Part shown: piece by piece, positions 129 through 56,440 of the stretch
Layout of the letters: each line of letters starts with the position of its first letter
Numbering within the stretch: the first letter of the stretch is position 1
Assembly: GCA_012516125.1 (NCBI GenBank)
Contig: JAAYXB010000010.1
Coordinates: forward strand, 15,984-79,983
Length of the DNA stretch: 64,000 nt
Direction: 5' to 3'
Origin: Bacillota bacterium
GTDB lineage: Bacteria; Bacillota; SHA-98; UBA4971
The notes under the pieces: model-generated
Told to the model about the DNA's origin: nothing
Databases searched by the model: none
What the model saw: the letters and a program-made list of their open reading frames with translations, nothing else
Made by a program: the position numbers and the translations under genes

Positions 129-193
129 CTAAGCAAGAGCGCAAAAACCTCCCGACGCTGGGAGGGTTGCCGGTGACTCAAAGAGCGAGTGCG
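129..193 (+). mobile_element. Degenerate truncated copy of the CTAAGTGAGGG MITE (left half)
   Basis: CTAAG start followed by CTCCCGAC..GGGAGGGTTGCCGGTGACTCAAAGAG, matching the other copies. Confidence 0.65.
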
Positions 194-310
194 TGTATAG
201 TCTGGTCGCCCTGCGTGGGATGTATTCCCGGCGCCTGACAGCGAGCGCGCAAAGCCCAGCATACTTCCAGCATGTTCAATATCATGCCTTCGCTCACGCG
301 GTGCTGGCTC

Positions 311-340
311 GAATAACAGCGCCCCACGGGGACCATACTA
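311..340 (+). promoter_or_regulatory. SigG-type forespore promoter for the DUF421 gene
   Basis: GAATA-N18-CATACTA fits the B. subtilis SigG consensus GHATR-N17/18-CATWHTA. Confidence 0.55.
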
Positions 341-364
341 CATCTCTGGCCGGGGGTTTGTTCG

Positions 365-491
365 CTAAGTGAGAGTAGAGGAGATGCTCCCGACTTTCGG
401 GAGGGGTTACCGGTGACTCAAATAGAGAATGCAACGCCGGCAACCCGACGCCCGTTGGGAAACCAGGAGGGATTAACGAACCCTCACTTGG
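365..491 (+). mobile_element. MITE, short form (127 bp), in the 5' UTR of the DUF421 gene
   Basis: Ends CTAAGTGAGAGT...CCCTCACTTGG; internal GGGGTTACCGGTG / CGCCGGCAACCC inverted repeat. Confidence 0.8.
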
Positions 492-529
492 CAAAATCTA
501 CACGGGACAGGGAAAGGGCTGGTCCTCGG

Positions 530-1267
530 GTGCTCTCCACCGTGGTCAAGACCATGTTCATGTATGTTTTCGTCCTCTTCGTCACGCGGCTCATGGGCAA
601 GCGCGAGATCGGCCAGCTTTCGCCCTTCGACCTCGTCGTTGCCATCATGATAGCGGACCTCGCCGCAATGCCTCTGGAGGAGAAGCGGATCCACATACAT
701 GACGCAGTCGTCCCCATCGTTGTGCTGGCAGCGGCAGAAGTGCTCTTTGCTTACATAACGCTCAGGAGCGACAAGGCAAGGGCGCTCATCAGCGGCCAAT
801 CCACCATCGTCATCAGGGACGGTCACATCCTTGAGGGCAACCTGCGGGAGCTTCGCTACAACCTCGACGACCTCCTGGCCGGCCTGCGGGAGAAGAACGT
901 CTCAAACATCCAGGATGTAGAGTTCGCGATCCTCGAGGGTTCGGGGCGCCTCAGCGTTATCATGAAGTCCCAGGCCAGGCCGCTCACGCCCAGAGACCTC
1001 GGGATCACCACCGCGTACGAGGGGCTGCCGTACCCGCTCATCACTGACGGCAGGGTCCACTATCACCACCTGGACCAGCTCGGCCTCACCGTTGCGTGGT
1101 TGAAAGAAGAGCTGGAGAAAAAGGGTGTGAAGGACCCGTCCGATGTACTCCTGGCGACGCTGGACACCGCGGGTGAGCTGTACGTCGCCAAGAAGGAGAG
1201 GGCGGAGGTGCACGACCTCCAGTCGAAGCTGGGGTCTAAGTCCGATACGTCTCAATCTGATGAATAG
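530..1267 (+). CDS. DUF421 / YetF-family membrane protein
   Basis: MGKREIGQLSPFDLVVAIMIADLA and LREKNVSNIQDVEFAILEGSGRLSV motifs; GTG start at 530 (the track extension to 413 lies inside the MITE). Confidence 0.9.
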   Translation: MLSTVVKTMFMYVFVLFVTRLMGKREIGQLSPFDLVVAIMIADLAAMPLEEKRIHIHDAVVPIVVLAAAEVLFAYITLRSDKARALISGQSTIVIRDGHILEGNLRELRYNLDDLLAGLREKNVSNIQDVEFAILEGSGRLSVIMKSQARPLTPRDLGITTAYEGLPYPLITDGRVHYHHLDQLGLTVAWLKEELEKKGVKDPSDVLLATLDTAGELYVAKKERAEVHDLQSKLGSKSDTSQSDE

Positions 1268-1281
1268 GCGGGGATGCTTCG

Positions 1282-1890
1282 ATGGAGTTATCAAAGGAGT
1301 TCCGAGACAAGTTCGTCAAGACGCTTCAGGGCAGGGACTACGTTCTGTACGGCGGCCTTCTCCAGCTTGCCCGTCAGCACGGGCTGAAGCGGATCACCAC
1401 AAACATCGTGCAGATCCCATCGCCTGACAACGGCATGTACGCGGTAGTCGAGGCGGAGATCGAAACCGAGAACGGCGTCTTCAAGGAGGTGGGCGACGCC
1501 TCGCCCGAGAGCGTGAACAGGGCGATCCAGCCGCACATCCTCCGGATGGCCGCGACCCGCGCCAAGGCCAGGGCAATGAGGGACGCAGTGGGCATCGATC
1601 TCGTGGCCCTCGAAGAGCTGGGCGACGTGCTGCCACAGGATGAGGTCCCGGGACCGGAGAGCCCCGAGGACCTCATCCTCACGTTCGGTAAGTACGCCAG
1701 ACGGCCTCTTGGGCACGTGGTCCGGCAGGACCCGGCGTACGTGGGCTGGCTCGCGGAGAACGCCCGTGACGAGGCGGTGCGAAAGGCCGCCCGCGACGTC
1801 CTCGGCAGGGCGGCCGCCGAGGACATCGGCGGCGGGGCGGAAGGCGGTATGGAGCCTGCTGAACGCGCCGAACGGCCGCCGGCTCACTGA
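1282..1890 (+). CDS. Hypothetical protein: Rad52/Rad22-like N-terminal region plus DUF3820-like C-terminal module
   Basis: RMAATRAKARAMRDAVG resembles the Rad52/Sak helix; LTFGKYARRPLGHVVRQDPAYVGWL resembles the FGKY..DP.Y..WL module. Confidence 0.55.
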   Translation: MELSKEFRDKFVKTLQGRDYVLYGGLLQLARQHGLKRITTNIVQIPSPDNGMYAVVEAEIETENGVFKEVGDASPESVNRAIQPHILRMAATRAKARAMRDAVGIDLVALEELGDVLPQDEVPGPESPEDLILTFGKYARRPLGHVVRQDPAYVGWLAENARDEAVRKAARDVLGRAAAEDIGGGAEGGMEPAERAERPPAH

Positions 1891-1902
1891 GCGACGGCCC
1901 GC

Positions 1903-3054: not shown

Positions 3055-3075
3055 CCGGCCGTAGTGTTGCCACGC

Positions 3076-5960: not shown

Positions 5961-8100
5961 TAGCCCCCAGCTTTTCAGTCAGAGCAGCCGAGATCGCCCT
6001 GTGAGCCTTCTCCACTTCCTCGTCGGTGAGGGTGCGCTCTGGACTGCGGTAGGTGATGGAGAATGCGAGGCTCCTGTGCCCTTCGGGCACTTGCGGCCCC
6101 TCGTACACGTCGAACAGCCTGACGTCCTCCACAAGATCCGCCCCTGCCGCGGCGATCTCGTCCCGGACCTCGGCGCTCGCGACGTCGCGACGCACGACAA
6201 TAGCCATGTCCCTCGTCACCGCCGGGAACCTGGCAAGAGGCTTCACGCGTGGCACGGGATCCCTTGCGGCGAGAATGCTTGCAAGGTCAAGCTCCGCCAC
6301 GCAGGCCCGCTTGCGAAGGCCGAGAGCCTCCCGGACGTCCGGGTGCAGCTCGCCAAGGAAGCCGATGTCGCCAATGTCGCCGTCGCTGCCGTCGCCATCC
6401 CCAGCCACCACGACCCGCGCGGTCCTCCCTGGGTGCAGCGATGGGTGGCTCGCGGCGACAAACCTGGCACCGCGCACCCCGAGGCCCTCGAGGAGCGTCT
6501 CCACAATGCCCTTCAGGTCGAAGAACCCCGCGTCGGCGGCCCCGCGCTCCCACGAAGGCTCGGCGATCCTGCCCATCACCGCAAGGCCGATCTTCGTCGG
6601 CTCACAGGGCAGGAGGTCCTCACATGCGCTGCCGCTGCCCGGTAGGCTATCTCCCCGCGCGCTCCCGGGAGCATCCTCGCGCTCGCGCCGCAGGTATACC
6701 CTGGCGATCTCGTAGATGGCGACGTCGTCCTCGCGGCGCGCAGCGTTTCTCTTGAGCACATCAAGGAGGCTCGTGAGAAGCGTCGTCCGCATCATCGTGT
6801 AGTCGCTGGAGAGCGGGTTGGATATCTTCACCGCGCGCCTCTCGACCTCGTCCTCGGGAAGCCGAAGCTCCCGGCATGCCTCGAAATTCGTGAACGTGAT
6901 GGTCTCGACCTCGGAGAGGCCGCACGCCCTGAGGATCTCGCCGGCCCTCGAGGCCACCTGTCTCGCCGGATCGAGGCGCACCTCGGGAGGTGCCCCTTCG
7001 GGCAGGGTGGCCTCTATCCTGTCGTACCCGTGCAGCCTCGCGATCTCCTCGACAAGGTCCTCCTCCCGGGACACGTCCCGCCGGTGGTCGGGAACGAGCA
7101 CGCGATATGCGTCACCGTCCTTGGACTCGATGATGAACCCGAGTCGCATCAGGATGTCCTTCATTTCCTCGGCAGGGATGTTCGTTCCGAGCAGGTGGTT
7201 CACGCGGCGCGGGCGGAGGGTCACGTAGACCGGCGCCTCGCGGCCAGGGTACGCATCCAACATCCCGAGGGCGATCTTGCCCGCGCCGATAGCGGCAATG
7301 AGGGCCGCGGCACGGTCTACTCCGATGCGGGCGTTCTCCGGCCACAGCCCGCGCGAGAATCGGCTCGACGCCTCGGTGCGCATCCGTAGCGCCCGCGAGG
7401 TGCGCCACACGCTCACGCCGTCGAAGTTCGCCGACTCGAGAAGCACCGCTTTGGTCCTCTCGCTCACCTCGGTTTCGAGACCGCCCATGACCCCGGCCAC
7501 GGCCACCGGACGGTCGGCATCGGCGATGACGAGCATGTCCTCGCTCAGCCTGCGCTGCTCACCGTCGATGGTGGTGATGGACTCGCCAGGCGCGGCCCGG
7601 CGAACGACGATGCGCCGCCCGCCGACAAGATCCAGGTCGAAGGCGTGGAGCGGCTGGCCGACTTCCAGCATGACGTAGTTTGTGACATCCACAATGTTGT
7701 TGATGGGTCGGACACCTGAAGACGCGAGCCTTGCCTGCATCCAGCCAGGGGACGGGCCGATCTTCACGTCCGTCACGATCCTGGCGATGTACCGGCGGCA
7801 GAGGCCGGGCGCGGCGATCTCCACCGAGGCCATGCCCTCCGCGGCACCCCCCTCCTCGGGCACGGCAAGCTCCGGATGGCGGAGGGGCAGCGAAAACACG
7901 GCCGCGGCCTCGCGCGCTAGGCCGAACACGTTCAAAAGGTCTGGACGGTTGTGCGTTATCTCGAAGTCGAAAACGGCGTCCTCACCTTCGCCCGTAAGGG
8001 CCTCAACGGCGACGCCGGCCATGGTGAGCACGCGGGCGACCTCGTCCGCCGGGGGAAGCCCGGGCACGAACTCCTTCAGCCATTCATAGGGTACAAGCAT
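5947..8100 (-). CDS. pheT: Phenylalanine--tRNA ligase beta subunit (short form lacking the B2 OB-fold)
   Basis: EITHNRPD, INNIVDVTNYVMLEVGQPLHAFD, DLVEEIARLHGY, C-terminal FDX-ACB domain; follows pheS. Confidence 0.95.
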   Translation of the reverse strand: MLVPYEWLKEFVPGLPPADEVARVLTMAGVAVEALTGEGEDAVFDFEITHNRPDLLNVFGLAREAAAVFSLPLRHPELAVPEEGGAAEGMASVEIAAPGLCRRYIARIVTDVKIGPSPGWMQARLASSGVRPINNIVDVTNYVMLEVGQPLHAFDLDLVGGRRIVVRRAAPGESITTIDGEQRRLSEDMLVIADADRPVAVAGVMGGLETEVSERTKAVLLESANFDGVSVWRTSRALRMRTEASSRFSRGLWPENARIGVDRAAALIAAIGAGKIALGMLDAYPGREAPVYVTLRPRRVNHLLGTNIPAEEMKDILMRLGFIIESKDGDAYRVLVPDHRRDVSREEDLVEEIARLHGYDRIEATLPEGAPPEVRLDPARQVASRAGEILRACGLSEVETITFTNFEACRELRLPEDEVERRAVKISNPLSSDYTMMRTTLLTSLLDVLKRNAARREDDVAIYEIARVYLRREREDAPGSARGDSLPGSGSACEDLLPCEPTKIGLAVMGRIAEPSWERGAADAGFFDLKGIVETLLEGLGVRGARFVAASHPSLHPGRTARVVVAGDGDGSDGDIGDIGFLGELHPDVREALGLRKRACVAELDLASILAARDPVPRVKPLARFPAVTRDMAIVVRRDVASAEVRDEIAAAGADLVEDVRLFDVYEGPQVPEGHRSLAFSITYRSPERTLTDEEVEKAHRAISAALTEKLGATVRE

Positions 8101-8103
8101 GTC

Positions 8104-9168
8104 TCAACCCTCCCTCGACGCATGAACAATATGGGCGGGGTTTATGTGGAGGAACTGGCGGTTGAAGCGCATGTCGTTCTCCGCCAGAAGCCGGATGTCG
8201 TCAATCCCGTACTTCAGCATGGCGATCCTGTCGGCGCCCATGCCAAAAGCGAGTCCCGACACCTTCTCGGGGTCGTACCCGACGGCTTCCAGCACCTTCG
8301 GGTGGAAAAGCCCCGACCCCAGGATCTCGAGCCAGCCCGTGTTCTTGCATACACGGCATCCCCTGCCGTGGCAGATCACGCACGACACGTCCATCTCGGC
8401 GCTGGGCTCGGTGAACGGGAAGTAGCTCGGACGGAACCTGACCTTCGTATCGGCCCCGAAGAACTCCCGGGCGAACCTCGCAAGCGTGCCCTTGAGGTCC
8501 CCGAACGTGATGCCCTCGTCAACAGCAAACCCGTCAAGCTGGTGGAACACTGGAAGGTGCGATGGATCGGACGCGTCCGACCTGTAAACCTTCCCCGGGA
8601 TGATCGCCCGGACCGGCGGCTTTCGCCCCTTCATGACGCGCACGTCCACGCATGTGGTGTGGGTGCGGAGCACCACCTCATCGGAGATGTAAAACGTGTC
8701 CTGGATGTCTCGCGACGGGTGGTTCTTCGGGACGTTGAGCGCCTCGAAGTTGTAGTAGTCCAGCTCGACCTCGGGACCCTCGGCCACCTCGAAGCCCATG
8801 CGTCCGAAGATCTCCTCGAGCTCCTCGTAGACCATCCTTATCGGGTGCCTCGCCCCCACAGGCGGCCTCGTGCCGGGGAGTGTGACATCCACCCTTTCCG
8901 CCTCGAGCGCCTTCGCCCTCTCCAGCGCTGCCACCTCGTCGCGCCGCCGGGTCAGCATGGCCTCCACCGATTCGCGGGCCTCGTTGAGCAGCTTCCCGAG
9001 GGCCGGGCGCTCCTCGGGAGGGCATGCGCCGAGGCTCCGAAGAGCCGCGGTGATCCTACCTTTCTTCCCGAGGTACCTGACTCTCACCTCGTCGAGCTCC
9101 GCAAGGCTCGACGCCGCGGAAACCTCGGCTGCGGCTTGCGAGATGATCTTCTCTACGTCGTCGCGCAT
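8104..9168 (-). CDS. pheS: Phenylalanine--tRNA ligase alpha subunit
   Basis: HPSRDIQDTFY, LRTHT, FRPSYFPFTEPS, GLAFGMG. Confidence 0.97.
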   Translation of the reverse strand: MRDDVEKIISQAAAEVSAASSLAELDEVRVRYLGKKGRITAALRSLGACPPEERPALGKLLNEARESVEAMLTRRRDEVAALERAKALEAERVDVTLPGTRPPVGARHPIRMVYEELEEIFGRMGFEVAEGPEVELDYYNFEALNVPKNHPSRDIQDTFYISDEVVLRTHTTCVDVRVMKGRKPPVRAIIPGKVYRSDASDPSHLPVFHQLDGFAVDEGITFGDLKGTLARFAREFFGADTKVRFRPSYFPFTEPSAEMDVSCVICHGRGCRVCKNTGWLEILGSGLFHPKVLEAVGYDPEKVSGLAFGMGADRIAMLKYGIDDIRLLAENDMRFNRQFLHINPAHIVHASREG

Positions 9169-9183
9169 CTACCGAACCCTCCC

Positions 9184-10125
9184 TTATCCTTGCGTGCCCT
9201 GCCAGGCGCACGCCTGCCTGTGCTCCGGCTCGTGCTCCCGTTCGTGCTCGGGCTCGTCCTCGTCCCCGTGCTCGTGCTCGCGTTCGTGCTCATGCTCGTG
9301 CTCGCGCTCGCGCTGCCTGAGCCGCTGCGCGGCAGCCACCACATGGGGAATGGCGTTCCACATTTCCGCGACCCGGGTGTACTCTGGCGACTTCGAAAGC
9401 CAGATGAGGAACTCGGCCGTGCCAGAGCTTCCGAGCACCGGCGACGGGGTCAGCCCCAGGATGCCGAACCCCTTCTGGTCGAAGTGGCTCACCAGGCGAG
9501 CAAGCACGTCCCTGTGGACGCCCGGGTCGTCGACGGCGGCTGGCCTCGAGTCCTCAAAGAGGGGCTTTATGAGCGCCACTATGTCGCCCCTCCCGACGAT
9601 GAGGCGGGCAATGATCGGAACCGCCTTCACGAGAGACAGGTAGGAGAGGTCGGCCACTGCCATCTCGGGCGGCGGCACGAGGTCCCCCGGCTCGAGGTCG
9701 CTGATGTTTGTACGCTCAAGTGAGACGACCCTTGGGTCCACCCGTAGCTTTCCCGCAAGCTGCCCGAAGCCCACGTCAACCGCGTACACGAGCCTCGCGC
9801 CCCGTTGCAGCAGGCAATCGGTAAAGCCGCCGGTGGACGCGCCGGCGTCTAGGACCACCTTTCCCGTGACGTCTATCCCGAACTCGCGGAGCGCGTGGTC
9901 CAGCTTCAGCCCGCCACGCCCCACAAAGGGCATATCGATGCCTTTCACCCGCACGTCGGCATCCGACGGCACAAGGGTGCCGGGCTTATCCTCGCGCTGT
10001 CCGTCCACAAGGACCTTGCCCGCCATGATGTAACCGATGGCGGCTCGCCGGCTGTCGAAGAACCCGCGTTCCACCAGGAGTTCATCAAGTCGCCTTTTCT
10101 TCGCGTATCTCACCACGCGGCTCAT
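9184..10125 (-). CDS. tlyA: TlyA family rRNA 2'-O-methyltransferase with His/Glu-rich C-terminal tail
   Basis: S4-like RLDELLVERG, FVGRGGLKL, LDAGASTGGFTDCLLQRGA, LIKPLFE, GSSGTAEFL. Confidence 0.9.
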   Translation of the reverse strand: MSRVVRYAKKRRLDELLVERGFFDSRRAAIGYIMAGKVLVDGQREDKPGTLVPSDADVRVKGIDMPFVGRGGLKLDHALREFGIDVTGKVVLDAGASTGGFTDCLLQRGARLVYAVDVGFGQLAGKLRVDPRVVSLERTNISDLEPGDLVPPPEMAVADLSYLSLVKAVPIIARLIVGRGDIVALIKPLFEDSRPAAVDDPGVHRDVLARLVSHFDQKGFGILGLTPSPVLGSSGTAEFLIWLSKSPEYTRVAEMWNAIPHVVAAAQRLRQREREHEHEHEREHEHGDEDEPEHEREHEPEHRQACAWQGTQG

Positions 10126-15629: not shown

Positions 15630-16127
15630 TCTTCCGTCACCTCAGTTCATTTCGGTGTTCATTCCTGTTACTGCCCCACGCATTCATTCCACGCCGGAAT
15701 CACGGGTCCGAAGGCCACGTGGGGTTCCGACCTTCCGCCCAAGTAGCACAACTAGAGCTGCGCGACCCCGTGTGGTTCCGTATCTCGCAAAGCATTGTTA
15801 TCGCTCTGCAGTATGGAGCAGTACCCCGCTTTAGCATGCACCTGGATCTGTTGCAACACCTCGTCGTGGCTGCCTTCCCCGGCACGCAGCACGGTCCCGC
15901 CGCCTCTGTCGAGCCTGTGTGCAGCATTCGACGCATTCCGTAACAGACACACGCTGCCTGTCTGAGTATGGCCTGTGCACCCCGACGGTTAACAGGTTTC
16001 CAATCGCGCGACAGATCGCACCACGCCGTGCCGGACACCCGGGACGTGCCCTGGGTTCCCCGCCCCGGCATAGGCCCTGAACGCTCTCTGCCACCTGGAC
16101 GGTGTCAGCCTGCCGTGGTGCTTTCCA

Positions 16128-16480
16128 GAAACAGAAAACAGAAGCCCCCGGCCCTGGAAAACTCCAGGGACGGGGGATGATCCCGCGGTTCCACCCTGAT
16201 TGGCATCGTCCTCTAAGGTTCCCCGGCCTGCAGCCGCCGCAGCCGCCGGGTAGCCCGGTCGGTTATGCCGCAGGCAGCACAGTGAACAACGCCCTCTCAC
16301 CGGGCACGCTAACGGGTGCTGCCGTCGCCGGCTACTCGCGCGAGGGAACGCGCTTTCACCGCGAGGCTCGAAGGGGGTTTTCGGCGCCACGTTGCCGGCG
16401 GGGGCTTCCAGCCGCCGACCCCCGCTCTCTCTCGGGCGCTCCGCCTACTCGTCCTTCTCATCGCCATCCCACGACAACTC
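16128..16480 (-). promoter_or_regulatory. T-box riboswitch, Thr (ACC) specifier
   Basis: GAAA-ACC specifier (16376-16378), T-box AGGGTGGAACCGCG (16184-16196), terminator plus U tract. Confidence 0.9.
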
Positions 16481-16493
16481 GCTTGTTACCGCA

Positions 16494-16522
16494 ATTATAG
16501 GCAAGCCGTCTCTACCTGTCAA
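16494..16522 (-). promoter_or_regulatory. SigA promoter of the thrS leader
   Basis: TTGACA-N17-TATAAT, perfect consensus. Confidence 0.9.
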
Positions 16523-16694
16523 GGCCCGATCGCATCAGCCGGGCCAACAACACCTGCGCCAGTAGGAAGCTCAGACGGTCAAGGCCGGCAAGTTCGGCCG
16601 CCAAGCCGGCAGATGTCCTGTCCATCTCGTGCAGCTTTGCTGCCATTGCCATCCTTGCTTCTCGGGTGAACTCGGACTCCGACATCTTCAACGA

Positions 16695-16893
16695 CTAAGT
16701 GAGGATGCGTTAGTTCTCACCCCTCTTCCAGTAGTTGCCGGGTTGCCGGTGTTGCACTCGGGGACGGCGCCCCAAGCGGGGCGCGCTTCGCCAAAATCCG
16801 GCCCGTCAAGCCAGTGGCCGGATTTTGACACCCCTCGCGCAATCACCGGCAACCCCTCCCAAAAGTCGGGAACATTTCTGCATCCTCACTTAG
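16695..16893 (-). mobile_element. MITE, long form (199 bp)
   Basis: CTAAGTGAGGATGC...GCATCCTCACTTAG terminal inverted repeats; nested AAAATCCGGCC/GGCCGGATTTT hairpin. Confidence 0.85.
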
Positions 16894-17536
16894 TGACATG
16901 GCTATGGGATAACGACACGGCTTATGCCGTGCCCGTCGGGTTTGTCTTGCGCTGCACACGGAACCTCCGACCGTTCACGTGCCAGCAAAGTGCCCCTGCC
17001 GCTTCGTAACATTACTACCCGGCCCTTGTCGATTCCTCCAAAGAATGGTGTCGCTTCCGAATTGTATTTATCGTGAGATGTCCCGAGCTTTCCTGGCTTG
17101 CATGGCCTCATGTGGAGGGCTGCGGTCCATTCGTCACGAAGCCCACAGAGAGTACGCCGCCATCAGGCGGCCTTTACTGTCATGCGTTCTGACAGGCGAT
17201 ATGGACATCTGAACGGTTGCGGCAAGGAACTCGTTTCGACAGAGCGGATAAGTGGGGCGTCACAGTGGACCGCCGCTGCGGGACGATGCGACGCACCCCT
17301 GTTATCAGCAGCTGGCAGAGTGCTCGAAAGGCGCGCATGGGTCAGCGATGGCACCGTTGCGAGCTTAACCCCAAGCTAGGTGAAACAAAAGCTGGCCGAT
17401 ATGCGCAACATGGTTCGTTTCAGAGCAGGCCCTTCGGGCACCAGGGATGTTAATGACGGTAGAGAGGGGTTAAAGGAACTCTCAACAAGGATCACACCAC
17501 AGGCGTCTATGTGAGGAGGCTGTCCGTGTAAGCAGG

Positions 17537-18863: not shown

Positions 18864-19880
18864 CTACCGCACGGCGATCCCGTGCCTTTCTGCCGCAAGG
18901 TCAAGGAGGGCAAGGACCAGGCGTTCGTATGAGTAGCCCGCCACTGCCGCCGCTTTCGGGAAGTCGCTGTATCCCTCCTTCATTCCCGGAAGCGTGTTCA
19001 GTTCCAGGATGTACGGGCGTCCTTCCCTGTCCACGCGGAAGTCCACCCGGGCGCAGTCGGAGCACTCGAGCGCGCGAAAGGCCTGAGCAGCGAGTCGCTG
19101 AAGTTCCTCAGCGAGGCTCACTTCGATATTAGCAGGGCATTCGGTGCCGATGACGTCCTGCGATTTCAGTTCGTGGGAGTAGAAGCCCCGCGCGCCCCTT
19201 CCTGCGGCAGCGAAATTGACCTCGACGACAGGCAAGGCCATGGGCGGACGGTTTCCCAGGACTCCGACGGTGAACTCCCGGCCCTCGATGAACTCTTCGG
19301 CCAGGACGGGGCCGCCGTACGCTGCGAGGGTCCGTTCGAGGACGTGCCTGAGCGTCCGCTCATCGTCCACCACGCTGTCCTCGGAGATCCCAACGCTCGA
19401 CCCTTCCCGGGCCGGCTTCACGATGAGCGGAAACCGCAGCATCGCATCGAGGGGCGTCTCCGGCGTGTAGAACGCCTGGAACGCAGGCGTGGGAAGACCC
19501 TCGTGACGCAGGATCTTTTTCGTCGTATGTTTGGCGAGGCCAAGAGCGTGGACCTCTGCGCTGGACCCGGTGTATCTCACCCCCACAAGGTCCATGACGG
19601 CGCAGACCTGAAACTGCGAGGCCCTGCCCGCCGCACCAGCGTAGGTGTTGAACACGATATCAACACCAGCGGTCTTGAGCCGCTCCATGAACCGGTCGTC
19701 CACAGGTATCTCTACAACTTCGTGCCCTGCCTCCGCCAGGATACGCGATATAGCGGCGGTCGTGGCCTCCTGCTGAGCTATGCTCCGGCCGCGTTCCACC
19801 TCCGTTCCGCCCTTTCCGGGGCGCGCTGGCCCCGTCGCATGCCTTTCCTCGGGAGCGAGCGTGAGCACTCCGACTCTCAT
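18864..19880 (-). CDS. D-alanine--D-alanine ligase-like ATP-grasp protein
   Basis: PLIVKPAREGSSVGI, EEFIEGREFTVGVLG, ARVDFR..LELNTLPG. Confidence 0.85.
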   Translation of the reverse strand: MRVGVLTLAPEERHATGPARPGKGGTEVERGRSIAQQEATTAAISRILAEAGHEVVEIPVDDRFMERLKTAGVDIVFNTYAGAAGRASQFQVCAVMDLVGVRYTGSSAEVHALGLAKHTTKKILRHEGLPTPAFQAFYTPETPLDAMLRFPLIVKPAREGSSVGISEDSVVDDERTLRHVLERTLAAYGGPVLAEEFIEGREFTVGVLGNRPPMALPVVEVNFAAAGRGARGFYSHELKSQDVIGTECPANIEVSLAEELQRLAAQAFRALECSDCARVDFRVDREGRPYILELNTLPGMKEGYSDFPKAAAVAGYSYERLVLALLDLAAERHGIAVR

Positions 19881-19919: not shown

Positions 19920-20117
19920 CTAAGTGGGGGTGCGTTAGTCCCTGTCCCTTTCCCAGTACTTGGCGGGTTGCCGGTGTTGCACTCGGGGACGGCGCCCAAG
20001 CGGGGCGCGCTTCGCCAAAATCCGGCCCGTCGGGCAAGTGGCCGGATTTTGACACCCCTCGTGCAAGCACCGGCAACCCCTCCCAAAAGTCGGGAGCATT
20101 TCTGCACCCCCACTTAG
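19920..20117 (-). mobile_element. MITE, long form (198 bp)
   Basis: CTAAGTGGGGGTGC...GCACCCCCACTTAG; near-identical to 16695-16893. Confidence 0.85.
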
Positions 20118-20476
20118 TAGTTTTTCAACATGGAGACCGGAGAACCCTCCCCGGCACGTTGACCCTGACCCCGACCCTGGCGATGGCGCTGGCGCTGGCG
20201 CTGGTGCCGGCGCTGACGCTGACGGTGATGCTGACGCTGACGGTGGTTGCACGCGCCCCGTGCCGTGGGACGAGAGAAAACCACGGGAACCACGGAGCAA
20301 GCTCCCTGCACCCCACGAATGCCACAAATGTGCACGAAAAAGGGGGGACGCAGAGGGGCGCCAGCAGCAGCGCCTGATTGCGGCGAGAGCAGCCAACGCA
20401 GACGGCCGCGCAGCAGTGGCAGCTCCTCACGACGTGCCTCCCGATGTGCACGGGCGGACCACCCCGGCCGTGGGGC

Positions 20477-24054: not shown

Positions 24055-24077
24055 GGGTTCTCAGCCCTCCCTTTACA

Positions 24078-24932: not shown

Positions 24933-25007
24933 TCGAATCCTTGATCTCTTCGTGCTGGCCCGTGGGACTTTCCGTGCCAACCGGTCAACCCCCGGCTCGC
25001 GTATCTT

Positions 25008-25036
25008 AGTTTACCACGTTCTCGCCGGACTTGCAA
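25008..25036 (-). promoter_or_regulatory. SigA promoter of tRNA-Gly/Cys
   Basis: TTGCAA-N17-TAAACT with extended TG. Confidence 0.75.
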
Positions 25037-25201
25037 TACCCTTTTGACCCGCTTTTAGCACGCATCTGGCCTGCCTCACGCTCTTACCCGCTGGCACTAC
25101 TCTCGATGAAATCAACTCGAGGCGGCCGTCGCTGGCAGTCTAACCCCTGGCAGGCCGGGGAATACTGTGCTTAAGAACCCGCTGCTCAGAAAGGATGAAG
25201 G

Positions 25202-26101
25202 ATGATGGCGCTCAGCGAGGAGGATCGCCACCTGGCCGAAAGGGTCCTCGAGTCCATCAAACAGGACGCCGGTCTTTGTGCTTATGAGATAAACGTAACC
25301 GCCCGCGATGGAGTCGTCCACCTCGCGGGCATTGTGGACGTGCAGGCCGAGAAGATGCGGGCTGAGGAGATCGCGGCCAGGCTGGACGGGGTCGCCGCAG
25401 TCGAAAATGACCTTACCGTCTGCGCAGACGGGCAGGTCACCGATGATGACGTGAACTTCGAAGTCTCCGAGGAACTCAGGCTCGATCCCCGCGTGGACTT
25501 CGGCCGGGTCTACGCCGAAAGCAAGCGCGGCGTAGTGCACCTCTATGGCAAGGTGGACTCCCTTGCTGACAGGCAGGCGGCCATCAGCGCGGCTGCCAGG
25601 GCGCGAGGGGTCAAGGAGGTGGTGAGCCACCTGGAGGTAGCCGGCGGAAAGGGCCTCGACGATCCAACCATTACAAACCGGGTTCGAGCAGCTATTGCGG
25701 CGAAGAGGGGGATCGACTCCGAGCTCATCTCCGCCACCACACGCCACGGAGCGGTCCGCCTCGAGGGACGGGTCCCCAGCGCGCGCCAGGCCGAGTTCGC
25801 AGAAGAGGTCGTTCGGAACACCGAGGGACCGCGGCGAATCGATAACCTCCTCATGGCCCCTCCTCCAGGGACAACAGCACCAGAGCAGGCAGCGCATGAG
25901 GTCAGACAGGCCCTGGCAAAACACCCGTCTCTCGCAGAGCGCGTTTCCGTCTCCCTCATGGACGGAAAGGTCGTGCTTGAAGGTGAGCTCGCCGACCTTG
26001 AGCAGAAGCGCACCCTGGAGAAGCTGGCGAGGCCCATCGTTGAGCGGTTCGGAAGAGAGGTCACGGGGCTCGACATGCGCGTCACCGTTGACACCCGATA
26101 A
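25202..26101 (+). CDS. BON-domain protein (multiple BON repeats)
   Basis: Repeated INVTARDGVVHLAGIV / GVVHLYGKVDS..GVKEVVSHL / GAVRLEGRV segments. Confidence 0.85.
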   Translation: MMALSEEDRHLAERVLESIKQDAGLCAYEINVTARDGVVHLAGIVDVQAEKMRAEEIAARLDGVAAVENDLTVCADGQVTDDDVNFEVSEELRLDPRVDFGRVYAESKRGVVHLYGKVDSLADRQAAISAAARARGVKEVVSHLEVAGGKGLDDPTITNRVRAAIAAKRGIDSELISATTRHGAVRLEGRVPSARQAEFAEEVVRNTEGPRRIDNLLMAPPPGTTAPEQAAHEVRQALAKHPSLAERVSVSLMDGKVVLEGELADLEQKRTLEKLARPIVERFGREVTGLDMRVTVDTR

Positions 26102-26318
26102 CCCATAGCCAGGCAGGCGATCCACTATGTGTCGCGGCCCATTACTGACACAGCTGGACTAGTACCGCGTTTCACAATTTCCGTCAGCTTTTCAGTCCTG
26201 CGTCCCGCACGCTCGCAAGTGCGAGCAACACGGCACCCTACACGGTCTTATGAAACGGAGTACTAGCCTCAACGGGAGCGTTGGAGGGACACCAACATCG
26301 AAAGGCCCCTCAAAACAC

Positions 26319-32757: not shown

Positions 32758-32857
32758 GCCCCGGCGCAAGCAGCCCTCTGGGCGAGGCCGCACCCGCATT
32801 CGCGGCAGGTATTGTTCTCTTTCCGAACTTCGGCGGCCCCTGTGCGCCTCTACTGTG

Positions 32858-33106: not shown

Positions 33107-33232
33107 CTAAGTGAGGGCGCGTTAGTTCCTGTCCCTTTTCCAGTGGTTGCCGGGTTGGCGGTGTTATACTCTCTCTTTGAGTCACCGTCAACCCCTCCCA
33201 GAAATCGGAGGGATTTCTGCACCCTCACTTAG
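33107..33232 (-). mobile_element. MITE, short form (126 bp)
   Basis: CTAAGTGAGGG...CCCTCACTTAG intact terminal repeats. Confidence 0.85.
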
Positions 33233-45830: not shown

Positions 45831-45904
45831 CTAAGTGGGGGTGCAGAAATGCTTCCGACTTTTGGGAGGGGTTGCCGGTGACTCAAAGAGAGAGCGCAAC
45901 ACCG
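45831..45904 (+). mobile_element. Truncated MITE (left half, 74 bp)
   Basis: CTAAGTGGGGGTGCAGAAATGCTTCCGACTTTTGGGAGGGGTTGCCGGTGACTCAAAGAG. Confidence 0.8.
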
Positions 45905-45909
45905 TAGAG

Positions 45910-46851: not shown

Positions 46852-47291
46852 ATCGTCACCCTATGACCGCACTCCGGGGAGACCTCATCGCCCCAGCCCC
46901 GTCCACGGCCGGCCGCCGGCCAGCCCGGTCCAAGTGGAACGTCACGAGACGGTTGGTTTTCCTCACTTCATGGCGTTGCTGTGCAGTAGAGCCCCGGAAA
47001 GGGGCCGCTGTGCATGGTCGAACTGGCAGCCGCTGGGACAAGCCAACAGCCTCCGTCACAAGTCGCTGCCGCTTTCCCAGACTCTGGGCAACTCGCGGTT
47101 GCCTGCGTTGCGCAGTTGCCAGCGCTCGGCCCCGGGGATGGCGGCCCAGGCAAGGCGCCTTGACGAGATTTCGCCCGCAGGCAGACGGCGAAACTCCGAC
47201 GCCCCCGTAGCGCAAGCACCAGCAACCTGAAACTCCCTGGAAAACCGGTGCGAGCTACTGAGCCTGCCGCACGCAGCGCCTGAACCCACAG

Positions 47292-48044
47292 TTAGCCCAG
47301 GCCGCCGCACGCGGGGCAGTTGGGGTCACGCGCGGCGCTTACCTCCCGCCACGTCGTCGCAAGCCCATCGAACAGGAGCAGCCGTCCGACCAGAGGCTGC
47401 CCCAGCCCAAGGATCACCTTAATGGCCTCGAGGGCCTCGATGCTGCCTACCACGCCCGGCACCGCGCCGATGATCCCGGCCTCCCTGCACGACGGCACCG
47501 CCCCGGGCGGCGGAAGGACGGGGAATATGCACCGGTAACACGGCCCTTTGCCGGGCACCACCGTGAGCACCATGCCATCGAACCTGAGCACCCCCGCCTC
47601 AATCAGGGGCTTGCCCGCCTTCACGCACGCGTCGTTCACGACATACCTGGTCTCAAGGTTGTCAACAGCGTCCACGACCACGTCATACGGCTCGACGAGC
47701 CCGGACACGTTCTCGGACGTGACCGTCATGCAGTGAGGCACCACGTGGACACTGGGGTTCAGGCGCGCAAGCGCCCGTTTCGCCGATTCCACCTTCGCGA
47801 GGCCCAGGTGGTTGACGCCGTGCAGAATCTGCCTCTGAAGGTTGGAGAGGTCCACGACATCGGAATCCACCAACCCGAGGGTGCCTACTCCGGCTGCGGC
47901 AAGATACATGGCCGCCGGGGACCCGAGGCCCCCGGCGCCCACCACCAGCACCTTCGCCACCCGCAGCTTTTCCTGCCCCGCCTCCCCTATCTCCGGAATC
48001 ACAAGCTGCCTGGAATATCGCATCCTCTCTTCATTGGTCAGCAT
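47292..48044 (-). CDS. moeB: MoeB/ThiF family adenylyltransferase
   Basis: RYSRQL, GAGGLGSP, SNLQRQ, DNLETR, PCYRC, C-terminal CPAC. Confidence 0.9.
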   Translation of the reverse strand: MLTNEERMRYSRQLVIPEIGEAGQEKLRVAKVLVVGAGGLGSPAAMYLAAAGVGTLGLVDSDVVDLSNLQRQILHGVNHLGLAKVESAKRALARLNPSVHVVPHCMTVTSENVSGLVEPYDVVVDAVDNLETRYVVNDACVKAGKPLIEAGVLRFDGMVLTVVPGKGPCYRCIFPVLPPPGAVPSCREAGIIGAVPGVVGSIEALEAIKVILGLGQPLVGRLLLFDGLATTWREVSAARDPNCPACGGLG

Positions 48045-48231
48045 CTCTGCATCACCAACCCCTCGCACCAGCCCTGTCGCAGCCTCACGACTGCAGCTTT
48101 GCTAGCGCAGCCTCGCCGCACCCTCGTTTCCGGTATGCCGCCCCACTCGCCGCTCTCCATCCGTTGCCCACGACAGCGGCACAGACCTGGGCTGGACTCA
48201 AGAAAACAGAGGTTAACCGCCCTGACGTGAG

Positions 48232-48372
48232 CCGGGCCGGACTGAGACAAGCCTAACCTGGTCAAGCCAAGCCAGGCCAGGCCAGACTGAGCTGGACTGA
48301 CTTCGGCACAGGAAGGCGGGGCAGGTTGAGGGCGAGCTAAACTAGCCAGGGCTAGAGCGAGCTAAGCTCGGT
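48232..48372. repeat. Low-complexity pentamer-periodic tract (GCCAG/ACTGA/GCTAA)
   Basis: GCCAAGCCAGGCCAGGCCAGACTGAGCTGGACTGA etc. Confidence 0.5.
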
Positions 48373-48418
48373 CGGGCTGCGCCACCAGTCTGCGTACCGC
48401 GCCGCCTGGCGTTGCCAG

Positions 48419-50044
48419 CTAAAGACAGCCCGATCGCTCCAGCACCCGCCGGAGCGCCCGCGTCGCCTCGCGTATCACTTCATTTTCGTCAAAGGCGAGG
48501 AGTTTCCTTCTATACATCAGGACGCGCCCGTCTACGATGGTCGTTTCCACATCAGACGCGGTCGCCTCGTACACCACGCGTGACACCACGTCCACACCCT
48601 CCGCGGGGACCGCGTGGGGTGCGTCAAGGTCAAGGATCACGATGTCCGCCCGCTTGCCCGGTTCGATGCTGCCGATCTCGTCCTCCAGGCCCATCGCTCG
48701 CGCCCCGCCGATCGTCGCCATCTCCAGCACCGTCGGAGCCGGCAGCGCAGTCGGCCCCAGACGCACCTTCTGGATGAGCGCGGCATGGCGCATTTCCTGG
48801 AACATGTCGAGGTTGTTGTTGCACGGCGCGCCGTCGGCACCCATGGACACGAACACGCCCATCTCGAGCATCTCCGGGACCTTCGCTATCCCCGAGGCCA
48901 GTTTGAGGTTGGACGACGGGCAGTGAACGACCTTCGTGCCGGAGTCGCGCAGGATCGCCATTTCCTCGTCGTCCAGCCATATGCAGTGGGCGAGGACGAG
49001 GTTCGGCCCGATGAGGCCCAGTTCGTGAAGGCATACGACGTTCCTCATACCCCTGTCCTGCTGCACGAGCTCAATCTCACCCCGGTTCTCAGAGGCGTGG
49101 GTGTGGACGAGCACCCCCGCCGCCCTCGCCATGTCGCGCACCCTCGCGAGGAGCCGGTCGGAGCACGATACCACAAACCTCGGCGCAAAGGCGTAGCGGA
49201 TCCTGCCGTCGTCGTGCATGTGCCACCGCTCGAGGAGGGCTTCACTTTCGCGGAGCGAGTCCTCAGTGGATTCCATGAGCGTCGCCGGCACGTCGGGTCC
49301 GTAGTCCATCATGACCTTCCCGGAGGCGGCGCGGATGCCTGACGAATCGATTGCCCAGAACGCGCTCTCGGTGTGGTGGACCGTCTCCATGTCGATGATG
49401 GACGTAGTCCCGCCGCGGATGAGCTCAGCTATCCCGAGCATCGCAGACCAATAAACACTCTCCTCGTCGTGGGCGCCCTCCAGCGGCCATATGCGCTTCT
49501 TCAGCCAGTCGAGGAGCTCGAGGTCGTCGGCCTGCCCCCGGAAAAGCGTTTGACAGAGGTGCACGTGTGCCTGGACGAACCCCGGCAGCACGACCTTGCC
49601 GGCGGCGTCTATGACCATGTCCACGTCATGCCTGTGGACGCCGACGGGAAGCTCGTGGACCTCCGCGCCCAACGCCGCGCCACAGCTGCCATTGTGGTCC
49701 ATGCCGGCCGAGTATGCGCCGATGTCTCCTTCCCCACCCGTACCCGAGTCCGCTCCTGTCCTGGCCCCCTCGGCTCCCGACAGGCTCGTGAGACTCGAGC
49801 AGCACCGCTCTCTTGACGACCTGAACCTTGAGCCTTCGTCCTCATCTCTTCGGCCGCCTGGTGAGGCCGGTCCTTTCCTGGTCCCTCCGAAGTCCTTTGA
49901 CCAGGGTCCCCGCGGCGATAGAGACCCAGGCCAGATCACCTGGGCTATCCTGCGCCCATCGATGAGGACATCGGCTCCCTCGAGCACCTCGCGCTTGCGG
50001 TTCATGGTCACAACGGTTCCCCCGCGGATGAGGATCTTCGCCAC
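48419..50044 (-). CDS. 5'-deoxyadenosine deaminase-like amidohydrolase with a long low-complexity insertion
   Basis: [48 protein letters not shown]. Confidence 0.88.
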
Positions 50045-52324: not shown

Positions 52325-52325
52325 G

Positions 52326-54419: not shown

Positions 54420-54577
54420 ATCCCTCACCTCCGGTTCTCGTTCTTGCCCTTGTCGTTTGCGCTCGGTTTCGACCCTTTCCAGCAGAACGCAGCTCGCAAT
54501 GGCTTGTGCGACGCAGCTGCTTCTCCGCTTGAGGTCTGCTTGCGCACGGATACCGCCCTATCGAGACCGCTCAGGGC

Positions 54578-54613
54578 GCAGTTCCATGCCACAACGCAGT
54601 TCCATCCCACAAT
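54578..54613. repeat. 18-bp direct repeat upstream of the hydrogenase gene
   Basis: GCAGTTCCATGCCACAAC GCAGTTCCATCCCACAAT. Confidence 0.65.
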
Positions 54614-54885
54614 AGCATAAAACCAGGAGGCTGCCTCAACTGGCCTGGGGCGCCGAGATCGAGCAAACGATCCCCGGACGCCCTCTCATAGCCAGGTTGG
54701 TTGCGGCCTCCTGGTAGAGACGCCTGAACCCACGATTATCAGGTCTATATGAGAGTGAGCCCTTAGCACCCTATGGTTCTTTTCTTATAAACATTCGGCG
54801 CAGCGTGCGACAATCCTTCCAACCGCGGTCACAGAGGCGGGTTCGCCGACCGTGAGCCATTGTCTCCGGGCAGCCACGCGCGCAC

Positions 54886-56277
54886 TTACCCGCGCGCGGC
54901 GCGGATCATGGCGTCAAGCTCGGGGATCATCGCCCGTTGCTTTACCCAGTATTCCTGCCTCTTCTGCGCGTTGAGCTCCTCAACGGTCTTGCCCTGCTGC
55001 TCAACCCAAGTGTAGTACTTGAGGTTATGCCACCGCTTCCGGTTCTCCACCGTCCCCTCAACGATGTGGTCGAGTTTGGCCGAAAGGAATATCGCCTCGT
55101 GGCGGCTCGCCGCCTTTACGCGGTCCATCTTGCCGTACGTGTCGGACAGGGCTTTCATCACCGACCTGTACCGGTCGATGGCGTCCGTGGCGACGGTGAC
55201 GATGTTGTCGTTAGGGCCGAACTCGTAGAACTTGGCGGTCTTGATCGCACCCAGGATGTTGCAGACGCCCGAGATCCCGATGATGCCGGACAGCGTCTCG
55301 ACCGCCGCCGCGTCGATCCCCACCTCGCCCGCGAGATACTCCATTCCGACAGGGTCGGTCAGGAGCTGGAGGCCCTTCTTACATTCCAGATCATCGATGC
55401 ACATCATGGCGTCCATGTTGTTGACATTGTGGATCCACGTAACGTGCTTGTCACCGATCCCCTGGATGTCGTGGGCACCGTACCCGTTGTACGAAAGCGT
55501 CGGGCACTGGACCGGCTCGAGGCCCACGATGCGCGTCTCATAAAACACCTCTTTGAGACGGTCCCCGGCAGCGATGGTCCCCGCGGAGCCCATCGCCGAG
55601 ACAAAGGCGGCCGTTCTCCCGTTTCCGATGCCTTTCTCCGCCAGCTCCCGCACGGCCTCGACTATGCTGTTGCCTGTCACATAGTAATGGAATCGGTAGT
55701 TCCCCATCTCCTCGAACTGGTTCAAGACGCGCACCCGCTCAGGGTCGGCCTTGACCAGTTCCTTGCACTTATCGTAGATCTCTTTGACGTTGCTCTCGCA
55801 TCCCGGGGTCGCGATGACCCGCGCCCCGTAGTACGCTATCTTCTCAAAGCGCTCCGCGCTCATCTGCTCCGGAAGGATGACCAGGGAGTCATATCCCATC
55901 CTCGGGCCGACCCAGGCCCCGCCGATTCCGTAGTTCCCTGTGGAGGGCCAGACCAGCGTGTGCTCGCCTGGGCGGATCTCGCCGCGAAGCTGCTTCTCGA
56001 TGGCCACGGAGTAGGTCGCGCCCACCTTGTGGCTGCCGGTGGGGAAATCCCTGCTGTACAGCAAAATGATGTTAGGCTCCACGCCCGTCAGCTCTCTCGG
56101 CACGAGGAAGTACCTTACTTTGTTGTCAAGCCCCTTCCACGTGATGTTGTACAGGTTGATGGGGTCGAGCACGTCCTCCTCAAGCGCCTTGACGGCTCTC
56201 TCCCTAACCGCCGGGTCTATGCGTTCAGGATGCAGCATCTCCTCGAATGTGGGGCCGTAGATCGGCTTACGCTTCAT
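54886..56277 (-). CDS. PLP-dependent enzyme (fold type II, cysteine/threonine synthase-like)
   Basis: GSHKVGA PLP lysine, STGNYGIG, GSAGT, HDIQGIG; ATG at 56277. Confidence 0.85.
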   Translation of the reverse strand: MKRKPIYGPTFEEMLHPERIDPAVRERAVKALEEDVLDPINLYNITWKGLDNKVRYFLVPRELTGVEPNIILLYSRDFPTGSHKVGATYSVAIEKQLRGEIRPGEHTLVWPSTGNYGIGGAWVGPRMGYDSLVILPEQMSAERFEKIAYYGARVIATPGCESNVKEIYDKCKELVKADPERVRVLNQFEEMGNYRFHYYVTGNSIVEAVRELAEKGIGNGRTAAFVSAMGSAGTIAAGDRLKEVFYETRIVGLEPVQCPTLSYNGYGAHDIQGIGDKHVTWIHNVNNMDAMMCIDDLECKKGLQLLTDPVGMEYLAGEVGIDAAAVETLSGIIGISGVCNILGAIKTAKFYEFGPNDNIVTVATDAIDRYRSVMKALSDTYGKMDRVKAASRHEAIFLSAKLDHIVEGTVENRKRWHNLKYYTWVEQQGKTVEELNAQKRQEYWVKQRAMIPELDAMIRAARG

Positions 56278-56314
56278 AAGTCTCTCACCTTTCTTTGCGA
56301 CGGTACAGGCAGCG

Positions 56315-56440
56315 CGAAGTGAGGGTGCGTTAGTTCTTGTCCCTTTTCCAGTAGTTGCCGGGTTGGCGGTGTTGCACTCTCTCTTTGCGTCGCCAGCAAC
56401 CCCTCCCAAAATACGGGAGCACCTTTGCACCCTCACTTAG
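56315..56440 (-). mobile_element. MITE, short form (126 bp); its end supplies the ssnA stop codon
   Basis: Minus strand TTC-TAA-GTGAGGGTGC...GCACCCTCACTTCG. Confidence 0.85.

Follow-up and report, generated by a model that had tools for sequence, protein, structure and literature searches.

What are the palindromic repeats that recur between the genes of an uncultured anaerobic-digester Bacillota, and how did they come to lie there? The stretch of DNA analysed here, 64 kb long and hereafter called the window, is part of the core chromosome of this organism, whose G+C content is 63%, and is ~95% identical to MAG-64 (JACIXY01). A preliminary description, made from the letters alone, had reported seven copies of a palindromic family and interpreted them as MITEs. 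This interpretation is supported. The repeats constitute a novel family of a well-known class of element and are, in all likelihood, non-autonomous MITEs that target CTAG, duplicate its TA and are moved in trans, most probably by a DDE/D transposase of the IS630/Tc1-mariner type.

Members of the IS630/Tc1-mariner group, ISY100 among them, duplicate the TA into which they insert (PMC2170065), and a preference of IS630 for the TA in 5'-CTAG-3' is quoted in the same source (PMC2170065, citing Tenzen & Ohtsubo 1991). RUP, an intergenic MITE of ~100 nt found in ~100 copies, has terminal TA, duplicates its target and is believed to be mobilised in trans by IS630-Spn1 (PMC2229807). The Correia/NEMIS elements of Neisseria are palindromic MITEs without a known transposase, with TA duplication, hundreds of copies, and short and long forms set apart by ~50 bp of internal sequence (PMC2229807). 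IS1301, in turn, is quoted as inserting at 5'-AYTAG-3' with TA duplication (PMC2193550, citing Hilse et al. 1996).

The Elements of the Window

All seven reported copies are present where they had been placed and align as one family, which was also recovered independently by a repeat finder (entries D1, D3, D4, D8, D9, I1-I9). An eighth, divergent CTAG-type element had been missed. The features of the 64 kb are as follows:

Copy A, 129..200, minus strand: half element, right arm only, with a degraded end CTAAGCAAGAGCGC (nhmmer E 6e-6)
Copy B, 365..491, minus strand: full 127-nt short form with a 'type b' left arm (E 1.8e-36)
Copy C, 16695..16893, plus strand: 199-nt long form (E 8e-71)
Copy D, 19920..20117, plus strand: 198-nt long form with TA at 19921-22 and 20115-16 (profile search)
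Copy E, 33107..33232, plus strand: 126-nt short form (profile search)
Copy F, 45831..45907, minus strand: half element (right arm and loop, 71 nt) with flanks C-TA … TA-G
Family 3 element, 46930..47295, no strand assigned: CCAAGTGGAACGTCAC … GAACCCACAGTTAG, interrupted by a nested unrelated MITE
Nested MITE of another type, 46946..47053, no strand assigned: 108 nt with inverted ends GAGACGGTTGG / CCAACAGCCTC
Copy G, 56315..56440, plus strand: 126-nt short form (E 2e-39)

Copies A and F had rightly been recognized as incomplete, but their extents require correction. Half-copy F, previously 45831-45904, reaches 45907 when its C-TA…TA-G is included, and copy A, previously 129-193, probably ends at 200 with TA on both sides (…GTG-TA-TAG), as copy F does; its inner boundary is near the centre of the palindrome and is followed by TA-TAG. 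Copy A is also found in strain X5, in a contig covering 1-683. The end changes that had been assigned to 491 and 56315 are actually located at 490, where the right end of copy B reads CACTTGG, and at 56316, where the left end of copy G reads CGAAGTG. The ends of copy C (GAGGATGC/GCATCCTC) are complementary to each other.

The elements are imperfect palindromes with a 14-bp terminal inverted repeat (AGTGAGGGTGC… following the TA), and the 14-bp ends of 54 aligned copies are CTAAGTGAGGGTGC / GCACCCTCACTTAG. The consensus of the ends is CTAAGTG(A/G)GG(G/A)(T/C)GC … GCA(C/T)CC(T/C)CACTTAG. Internal to this lies another inverted repeat, GGGTTGCCGGTG / CACCGGCAACCC, as described, with 25 matches (at most two mismatches) vs 10.2 ± 3.1 in shuffled sequence, and none of 100 shuffles reached 25. 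In the short form (126 nt) the loop comprises 12 nt, its place being taken in the long form (199 nt; copies C and D) by a module of ~85 nt. Both forms are non-coding, with no conserved ORF, and lie within the size range of MITEs (<300 bp). The identity of the copies to the consensus is 79-97%.

At least three families can be distinguished; their arms are unrelated, and what they have in common is the CTAAGT tip (6 nt) and the inner repeat of 12 bp. Family 3 measures 258 nt once the nested element is removed, and its inner repeat reads GGTTGCCTGCG… / …CACCAGCAACC. The nested 108-nt MITE is bordered by 6-bp direct repeats (CGTCAC at 46940-45 and 47054-59) and is found again, inserted at the corresponding position in family-1 ends, in L055 (with the repeat GTGCAG) and in L013 (with CTGCAC).

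Abundance

The preliminary description had extrapolated its seven copies to hundreds per genome. The eight elements of the window, ~116 further elements located by profile search in ~470 kb of five related MAGs, and an element-core k-mer depth 200-400 times that of single-copy genes in four metagenomes are consistent with a copy number of the order of hundreds in this uncultured bacterium. A plasmid collection searched by blastn with the long form gave no match, and the same was true of IMG/VR viral contigs searched with two patterns.

Target Site and Empty Alleles

Duplication of TA in a CTAG target had been deduced from the ends, and a comparison with related strains had been proposed as the check. 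Contigs of related strains contain four empty alleles, all four of which read exactly CTAG, and the filled alleles at these sites read C-TA-[AGTG…CACT]-TA-G. Copy D is empty in X5, X11 and X12 (joint 19922->20122 with GTAGTC between; GATG-CTAG-TAGT); copy E in X5, X7 and X11 (joint 33103->33230 with AAC between; AA-CTAG-CTCATG), the same site being filled in MAG-64 (L056 2585-2708); copy F in X12 (joint 45831->45905; GGCG-CTAG-AGTC); and the element at 46930-47295 in X12 and X7 (joint 46925->47305/47302; GGCCCGGT-CTAG-CCCCGGCC). Insertion at the TA of CTAG duplicates the TA and yields C-TA-[element]-TA-G. A nested insertion agrees with this: at the point concerned, its uninterrupted paralogues have CTAG, CCAG or CTGG. 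Ordinary decay does not account for half-copy F, which is bordered by TA at either end and whose empty allele is exactly CTAG. At the very point where copy D ends, L065 switches partner, probably owing to assembly through the repeat, and in the more distant MAG loci (L066-L069) the intergenic DNA is too diverged for empty sites to be called.

The earlier observation that no direct repeat is visible outside the ends extends to 54 aligned full-length copies, which have no conserved bases beyond CTA…TAG; the outer C and G are retained in ~85% of them, which is the general level of conservation. Six sites are polymorphic among strains. The site near 24061 is empty in the window and filled in MAG-64, X5, X11 and X12, and one junction (CCCTCT|AAGT…) is occupied by family 2 in MAG-64 and by family 1 in X11 and X7, the window, X5 and X12 being empty there with CTGG. 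Neither of two sites filled in relatives but empty here reads CTAG; they read CTGG and TCAG, so that a mutation of the target, either later or earlier, is required. Close strains do not have the same sites filled, which shows recent mobility of the family. In the window, CTAG is strongly depleted, with about half of the intergenic CTAG sites occupied.

Neighbouring Genes, Stop Codons, and Strand Bias

Every copy sits between Pfam-annotated genes, and together with the gene calls this upholds the claim that all are intergenic; yet the terminal TTAG of copy G provides the TAA stop of the adjoining amidohydrolase gene (56437-57843, minus strand). The TAA stop of an adjoining gene is supplied by 18 of 102 elements. 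Accumulation between genes, often exactly at stops, may be attributable to the rarity of CTAG in the genome and to TAG stops preceded by C, which provide it. With respect to co-directional genes, 34 elements are antisense and 10 are sense, a bias that random cut-and-paste insertion does not predict. Transcription and replication are inseparable as its source because the genes are nearly all co-oriented.

The Search for a Transposase

Pfam scans of the 44 predicted genes agree with the preliminary description that the window holds no transposase (for the gene at 18864-19880, the domains were taken from the precomputed annotation of its 99% homologue). The window and ~530 kb of related loci yielded no autonomous element and no recognisable transposase gene bounded by these ends, nor did a search for orphan ends reveal one, and no DDE_3-type transposase gene was detected there. 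Inverted end pairs 600-3500 bp apart and repeated DNA of >350 bp among loci disclosed no autonomous element either. The genes bracketed by elements are, according to Pfam, dapB, atpB, a tRNA methyltransferase gene and DUF364, with no transposase among them. Searches by tblastn with IS630, DDE_3, IS5 and Mos1 queries returned nothing, which is a weak negative, and in metagenome assemblies the search for IS-interior contigs joined to arms gave only other MITE variants. Two genes considered as transposase candidates were discarded. One, of 313 aa, lies between half-copy F and the family 3 element near 47 kb and corresponds to an EamA transporter; the other, of 300 aa and located between tRNAs, corresponds to a BON-domain protein.

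The Proposed Mobilizing Enzyme

The elements resemble IS630 and ISY100 in their TA target, its 2-bp duplication and their terminal inverted repeats, and the CTAG context is present in all four empty alleles. The AGTG.GGG end after the TA resembles the CAGTG… ends of Tc1 and Tc3. Unlike IS630 and ISY100, they are 126-199 nt long and non-coding, have an inner inverted repeat and a strand bias, and have no transposase gene with matching ends in the window and ~530 kb. Such a strand bias is not known from IS630 elements. The elements bear the marks of MITEs in their target duplication, visible between filled and empty alleles, and their many dispersed, strain-polymorphic copies. RUP has 9-bp terminal inverted repeats that match a known IS and resides in an AT-rich host; the elements described here differ in their 63% G+C host, their CTAG target, and their several families with only the tip and inner repeat in common. 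Correia/NEMIS elements are likewise palindromic, duplicate TA, occur in short and long forms and number hundreds of copies; however, their sequence is unrelated, and an IHF site as well as promoter and RNase III features are known from them. CTAG specificity and frequent stop-codon capture, both seen here, are not known to be features of Correia elements.

According to the proposed mechanism, a transposase acting in trans would recognise the ends of the element. Being the only internal sequence common to families with differing arms, the inner repeat may serve as a further site of binding. The DDE/D enzyme would then excise the element and join its 3' ends 2 bp apart at a TA, and elements would gather at stop codons, turning TAG into TAA.

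Movement by a transposase of the IS5 family, of the IS427/IS1301 type that duplicates TA in YTAG, is the strongest alternative, although an unlikely one. The CTAG target and the TA duplication fit its YTAG core, and no transposase was found that would decide between the families. IS1301 in particular is similar in its TA duplication and YTAG-containing target, which in its case is AYTAG, and differs in being an autonomous IS. Its size is 0.8 kb. The AYTAG consensus is not seen here, as A is not favoured at the position preceding CTAG (A 13, T 12, G 14, C 14; n = 53), and tblastn with an IS5 (DUF4096-type) sequence was negative, which is a weak test. An IS630-type enzyme is favoured over an IS5-type one.

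Much less probable is a REP/BIME-like or IS200/IS605-type (PATE) nature, in which an HUH enzyme (RAYT/TnpA) would move single strands at the replication fork to positions beside CTA, with no true duplication. REP/BIME sequences are palindromes of 20-40 nt with no target duplication and a RAYT gene, and IS200/IS605-derived PATEs have no terminal inverted repeats, no duplication, subterminal hairpins and strand-specific insertion. The strong hairpin potential of both strands, the 34:10 bias, which is inseparable from replication direction, the conservation of the right arm as against the variable left one, and the retention of mostly the same arm in half copies would all suit this explanation. 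Nevertheless, the search pattern is located in the right arm, and ascertainment accounts for part of its conservation; the ends are true inverted repeats with TA symmetrically on each side; the empty sites are the palindrome CTAG; both orientations occur, the minority amounting to 10 of 44; a length of 126-199 nt far exceeds that of REPs; and Pfam scans of the window revealed no HUH gene. Only the strand bias is PATE-like.

A structured RNA or cis-regulatory family, for example terminators or RNA-stability hairpins kept for their fold and not spread by transposition, is the least credible explanation and, as the primary nature of the repeats, is already largely refuted. Filled and empty alleles with TA duplication exist among close strains. 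Folding is indeed far above that of shuffled sequence (z -3 to -9; copy B, -50.5 kcal/mol, z -4.05; copy C, -116.9 kcal/mol, z -9.1), the strand bias is relative to genes, and metatranscriptome assemblies contain element k-mers at a depth 25-40 times that of genes. However, the RNA-to-DNA depth ratio is about that of DNA runs, which makes these data uninformative, carry-over of DNA may contribute, and the terminal stem shows 11 compensated vs ~107 one-sided changes, the test for covariation and for a strand asymmetry of G·U pairs being negative. Scans of copies C and D detected no terminator or promoter sites within the elements. The Rfam check that had been suggested gave no match for the whole window at the gathering threshold and nothing relevant for two copies at E <= 1, the sole sub-threshold match being a plant miRNA hairpin (23 bits vs a cut-off of 103). 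To judge from the changes in the stem and the 79-97% identity to the consensus, the copies appear to decay from a master sequence rather than to be under structural selection.

Implications

As CTAG-specific MITEs, these elements form a superfamily that makes up roughly 1-2% of the genome in a widespread uncultured lineage of Bacillota from digesters, sediments and oil fields. The understanding of how MITEs work is unchanged. In practical terms, the copies break short-read assemblies, many contigs stopping within one, and the filled and empty sites are ready strain markers for metagenomes. At many genes, stop codons and intergenic spacing have been altered. With its very clean specificity for CTAG, a site used by two families in turn and strong depletion of CTAG, the superfamily lends itself well to the study, in nature, of the limits that target scarcity sets on a transposon.

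It is also conceivable, if rather doubtful, that the three or more families share one dedicated, CTAG-specific putative transposase and not a conventional multi-copy IS, in which case the bias and the site occupancy would go beyond passive parasitism. If so, the 34:10 bias may stem from a filtering or a use of copies that operates through transcripts or replication, and the elements may shape the 3' ends and stop codons of many genes and the CTAG content of the genome.

Anatomy and Forms of the Elements

The seven palindromic stretches that the preliminary description had placed in one family were read and then aligned in one orientation, which confirmed the copies and their membership of a single family (family 1), also found independently by a repeat finder. 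The ends are of the type CTAAGTG(A/G)GGGTGC … GCACCCTCACTTAG, and the end changes reported at 491 and 56315 actually lie at 490 and 56316. Further inside there is an inner inverted repeat (GGGTTGCCGGTG / CACCGGCAACCC), the inner 12-mer having 25 matches at up to two mismatches versus 10.2 ± 3.1 in shuffles, and the right arm carries a small hairpin, CTCCCAAAAGTCGGGAG.

Forms of family 1 in the window
Short form, 126-127 nt with a 12-nt loop: copies B (365-491), E (33107-33232) and G (56315-56440)
Long form, 198-199 nt with a ~85-nt module in place of the 12-nt loop: copies C (16695-16893) and D (19920-20117)
Half elements, right arm kept: copies A (129-200) and F (45831-45907 when the flanking C-TA…TA-G is counted)

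The ~85-nt module has its own hairpin (AAAATCCGGCC…GGCCGGATTTT) and is inverted relative to the arms in four long copies, an arrangement that would result if the inner inverted repeats recombined with each other. The inner repeat contains GGGTTGC, similar to the terminal GGGTGC, and is the sole internal sequence common to families 1, 2 and 3, i.e., groups with different arms; an eighth element of the window (46930-47295) belongs to family 3.

Target Site and Recent Mobility

Contigs of related strains (metagenome runs X5, X7, X11, and X12), aligned to the window, cleanly skip four elements.

Empty alleles in related strains
Copy D: joint 19922→20122; X5, X11, X12; GATG-CTAG-TAGT
Copy E: joint 33103→33230; X5, X7, X11; AA-CTAG-CTCATG
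Copy F: joint 45831→45905; X12; GGCG-CTAG-AGTC
Element 46930-47295: joint 46925→47305/47302; X12, X7; GGCCCGGT-CTAG-CCCCGGCC

All four empty alleles are CTAG and all four filled ones read C-TA-[AGTG…CACT]-TA-G; therefore, the central TA of CTAG is duplicated on insertion, as had been proposed. The flanks beyond CTA…TAG lack any conserved position in 54 copies. In a related locus (L038, 1657-1855), a family-1 copy is nested in a family-2 copy, and uninterrupted paralogues read CTAG, CCAG or CTGG there; where a site differs among strains or paralogues, CTGG and CCAG are likewise the alternatives to CTAG. Among the 4-nt palindromes of the window, depletion is by a wide margin strongest for CTAG (26 seen versus 66.7 expected from trinucleotides under a Markov model and 215 from base composition); ten intergenic CTAGs are free and eight sites are occupied. 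Of 102 elements, 18, copy G among them, give the neighbouring gene its TAA stop, as would result from insertion into a C-TAG stop codon. An intergenic low-complexity stretch (48045-48421) with short repeats of the GGCCAG / GACTGA type and three CTAGs is skipped by an X5 contig.

Two further sites are empty in the window and filled in relatives. At ~24061, a family-1 copy is present in Bacillota bacterium MAG-64 (JACIXY01; L033, 4096-4294) and in the X5, X11, and X12 strains, but absent from the window and from an X7 contig identical to it. At 32779/80, which is unoccupied in the window, X5 and X12, MAG-64 has a family-2 copy (L056, 3045-3259) and X11 and X7 have a family-1 copy with the same junction, so this one site was used by two families in independent events. 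Without an insertion, the two places read TCAG and CTGG, respectively, instead of CTAG, and the target has therefore changed by mutation in one of the lineages.

Hosts and Copy Number

A degenerate right-arm pattern, scanned across one genome per GTDB species, matched at least 64 eight-kb blocks. Among the matches listed, most blocks come from MAG-64, whose scaffold 1 is 94-96% identical to the window, and others from Yes71-24 (JASEJE01), MAG107 (JBLNDE01), UBA6811 (DKEX01), and MAG135 (JBLNCC01). The match in a proteobacterial MAG (L009) falls within a gene and was rejected as a chance match. Many copies are carried by "Betaproteobacteria bacterium MAG135" (loci L019, L025, L028, L034, L049, L060, L061, and L064), and this genome has 85-88% identical DNA in common with the Bacillota MAG Yes71-24; its label or bin is probably wrong. 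The exact window sequence is present in four anaerobic-digester metagenomes, and close strains in biogas-fermenter, sediment, soil, and oil-field metagenomes. One biogas contig (L065, 1-273) is 99% identical to the window up to the final nucleotide of copy D and unrelated thereafter; the assembly has probably switched sequence by way of the repeat.

Profile HMMs of both forms, run on the window and the 64 loci, gave 124 elements or fragments (roughly 30 full short, 45 full long, ~25 truncated, and ~20 from other families with the common core), with copies 79-97% identical to their own consensus. The loci had been selected by the presence of one copy each, so density was computed from further copies only: ~50 in ~470 kb, about one per 9 kb, equal to that of the window. 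In four metagenomes, the k-mer depth of the element core is 200-400x that of flanking single-copy genes (at 19994, 16013 versus ~70 in X5 and 4450 versus ~11 in X11), a per-genome upper bound because relatives in the same sample add to depth. The depth profile along copy E agrees with a high copy number. Density and depth together support the earlier estimate of hundreds per genome.

Mobilizing Enzyme

The elements duplicate TA in CTAG, carry terminal inverted repeats, occur in many copies, and differ in occupancy between strains, and their overall reading as a CTAG-targeting family of MITEs (small non-coding mobile elements) is supported. Such a pattern is the signature of IS630/Tc1-mariner elements, which excise by double-strand cuts and join their 3′ ends 2 bp apart at TA (PMC2170065); IS630 favours TA inside CTAG (Tenzen and Ohtsubo, 1991, as cited in PMC2170065). 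An enzyme of this type would move the elements, its gene lying in another part of the genome or of the community, and the inner repeat may be a second binding site for it. An IS5-family enzyme like that of IS1301 is a possible mobilizer, as it likewise duplicates TA, in the target AYTAG (PMC2193550); however, the copies have no preference for A before CTAG, which is mild evidence against it. Pfam annotation of the window genes upheld the absence of a transposase. No autonomous element was found in the 64-kb window and ~530 kb of related DNA, a weak negative because IS copies are often lost from short-read MAGs.

RNA or Regulatory Role

An Rfam search gave no match for the elements. They fold very stably on both strands, as expected of any palindrome. 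The terminal stem speaks against a selected RNA or hairpin fold, with 11 compensated versus ~107 one-sided changes and about equal G·T and A·C mismatches, a pattern of decay from a master sequence. No promoter or terminator consensus was found inside copies C or D, and the elements do occur in metatranscriptome assemblies, though their depth relative to genes is about that of DNA assemblies, so their presence there is of little weight.

Strand Bias and Half Copies

The canonical strand is antisense to the genes in 34 of 44 elements between co-directional genes (p = 4e-4), and the bias is 24:7 in MAG-64 alone. Genes are almost all co-oriented within each contig, which leaves either transcription or replication as a possible cause of the bias. 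Half copies usually retain the right arm and end near the palindrome centre, and copy F, though half, is bounded by TA on either side, with an empty allele that reads precisely CTAG. In vitro, ISY100 yields one-ended strand transfer more often than any other product (PMC2170065); such transfer, with breakage at the palindrome centre, might speculatively generate half copies.

Other Features of the Window

The window genes are, by Pfam annotation, an ordinary core set (pheST, infC-rpmI-rplT, thrS, mreB, a tRNA cluster, and a purine-catabolism-like cluster). Additional features are:

9216-9311: 12-nt periodic repeat (GCTCGTGCTCGC-like), overlapped by ORFs 9184-10125(-) and 7951-9723(+)
15630-17536: 1.9 kb without a convincing gene; Rfam found no thrS leader here, where any would lie
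16512-16691(-): truncated UPF0175 (antitoxin-like) ORF, its start abutting copy C
20150-20260: intergenic hexamer-type repeats (GCTGGC/GCTGAC) adjoining copy D
24933-26318: 1386 nt between two tRNA genes, with a four-repeat BON-domain gene (25202-26101)
46946-47053: second, unrelated 108-nt MITE, ends GAGACGGTTGG / CCAACAGCCTC, 6-bp direct repeats CGTCAC
54669-54772(-): purine riboswitch (Rfam RF00167, 44.4 bits, gathering 37), upstream of an Fe-only-hydrogenase-like gene

The 1386-nt stretch is skipped by contigs of four other metagenomes (joint 24932→26319) and could be an insertion in the window or a different tRNA arrangement in other strains. The 108-nt MITE recurs at L055 (~1320-1428) and L013 (~85-190), with direct repeats GTGCAG and CTGCAC; its position is equivalent in 3/3 cases, ~11-16 nt inward from the terminus of a CTAG-type element. 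The riboswitch-bearing cluster, with xanthine-dehydrogenase-type MoCo, FAD, and 2Fe-2S subunits and amidohydrolases, looks like one for purine catabolism.

Relation to Known Systems

The family resembles RUP, which depends on IS630-Spn1, and the Correia elements in its short and long forms, TA duplication, and hundreds of copies (PMC2229807), but its sequence is unrelated to theirs. Its particular traits are a strict CTAG target in a CTAG-poor genome of 63% G+C, frequent stop-codon capture, strand bias, and modular families with a common tip and inner repeat. It is a new family whose behaviour is of the kind already known from RUP and Correia elements.
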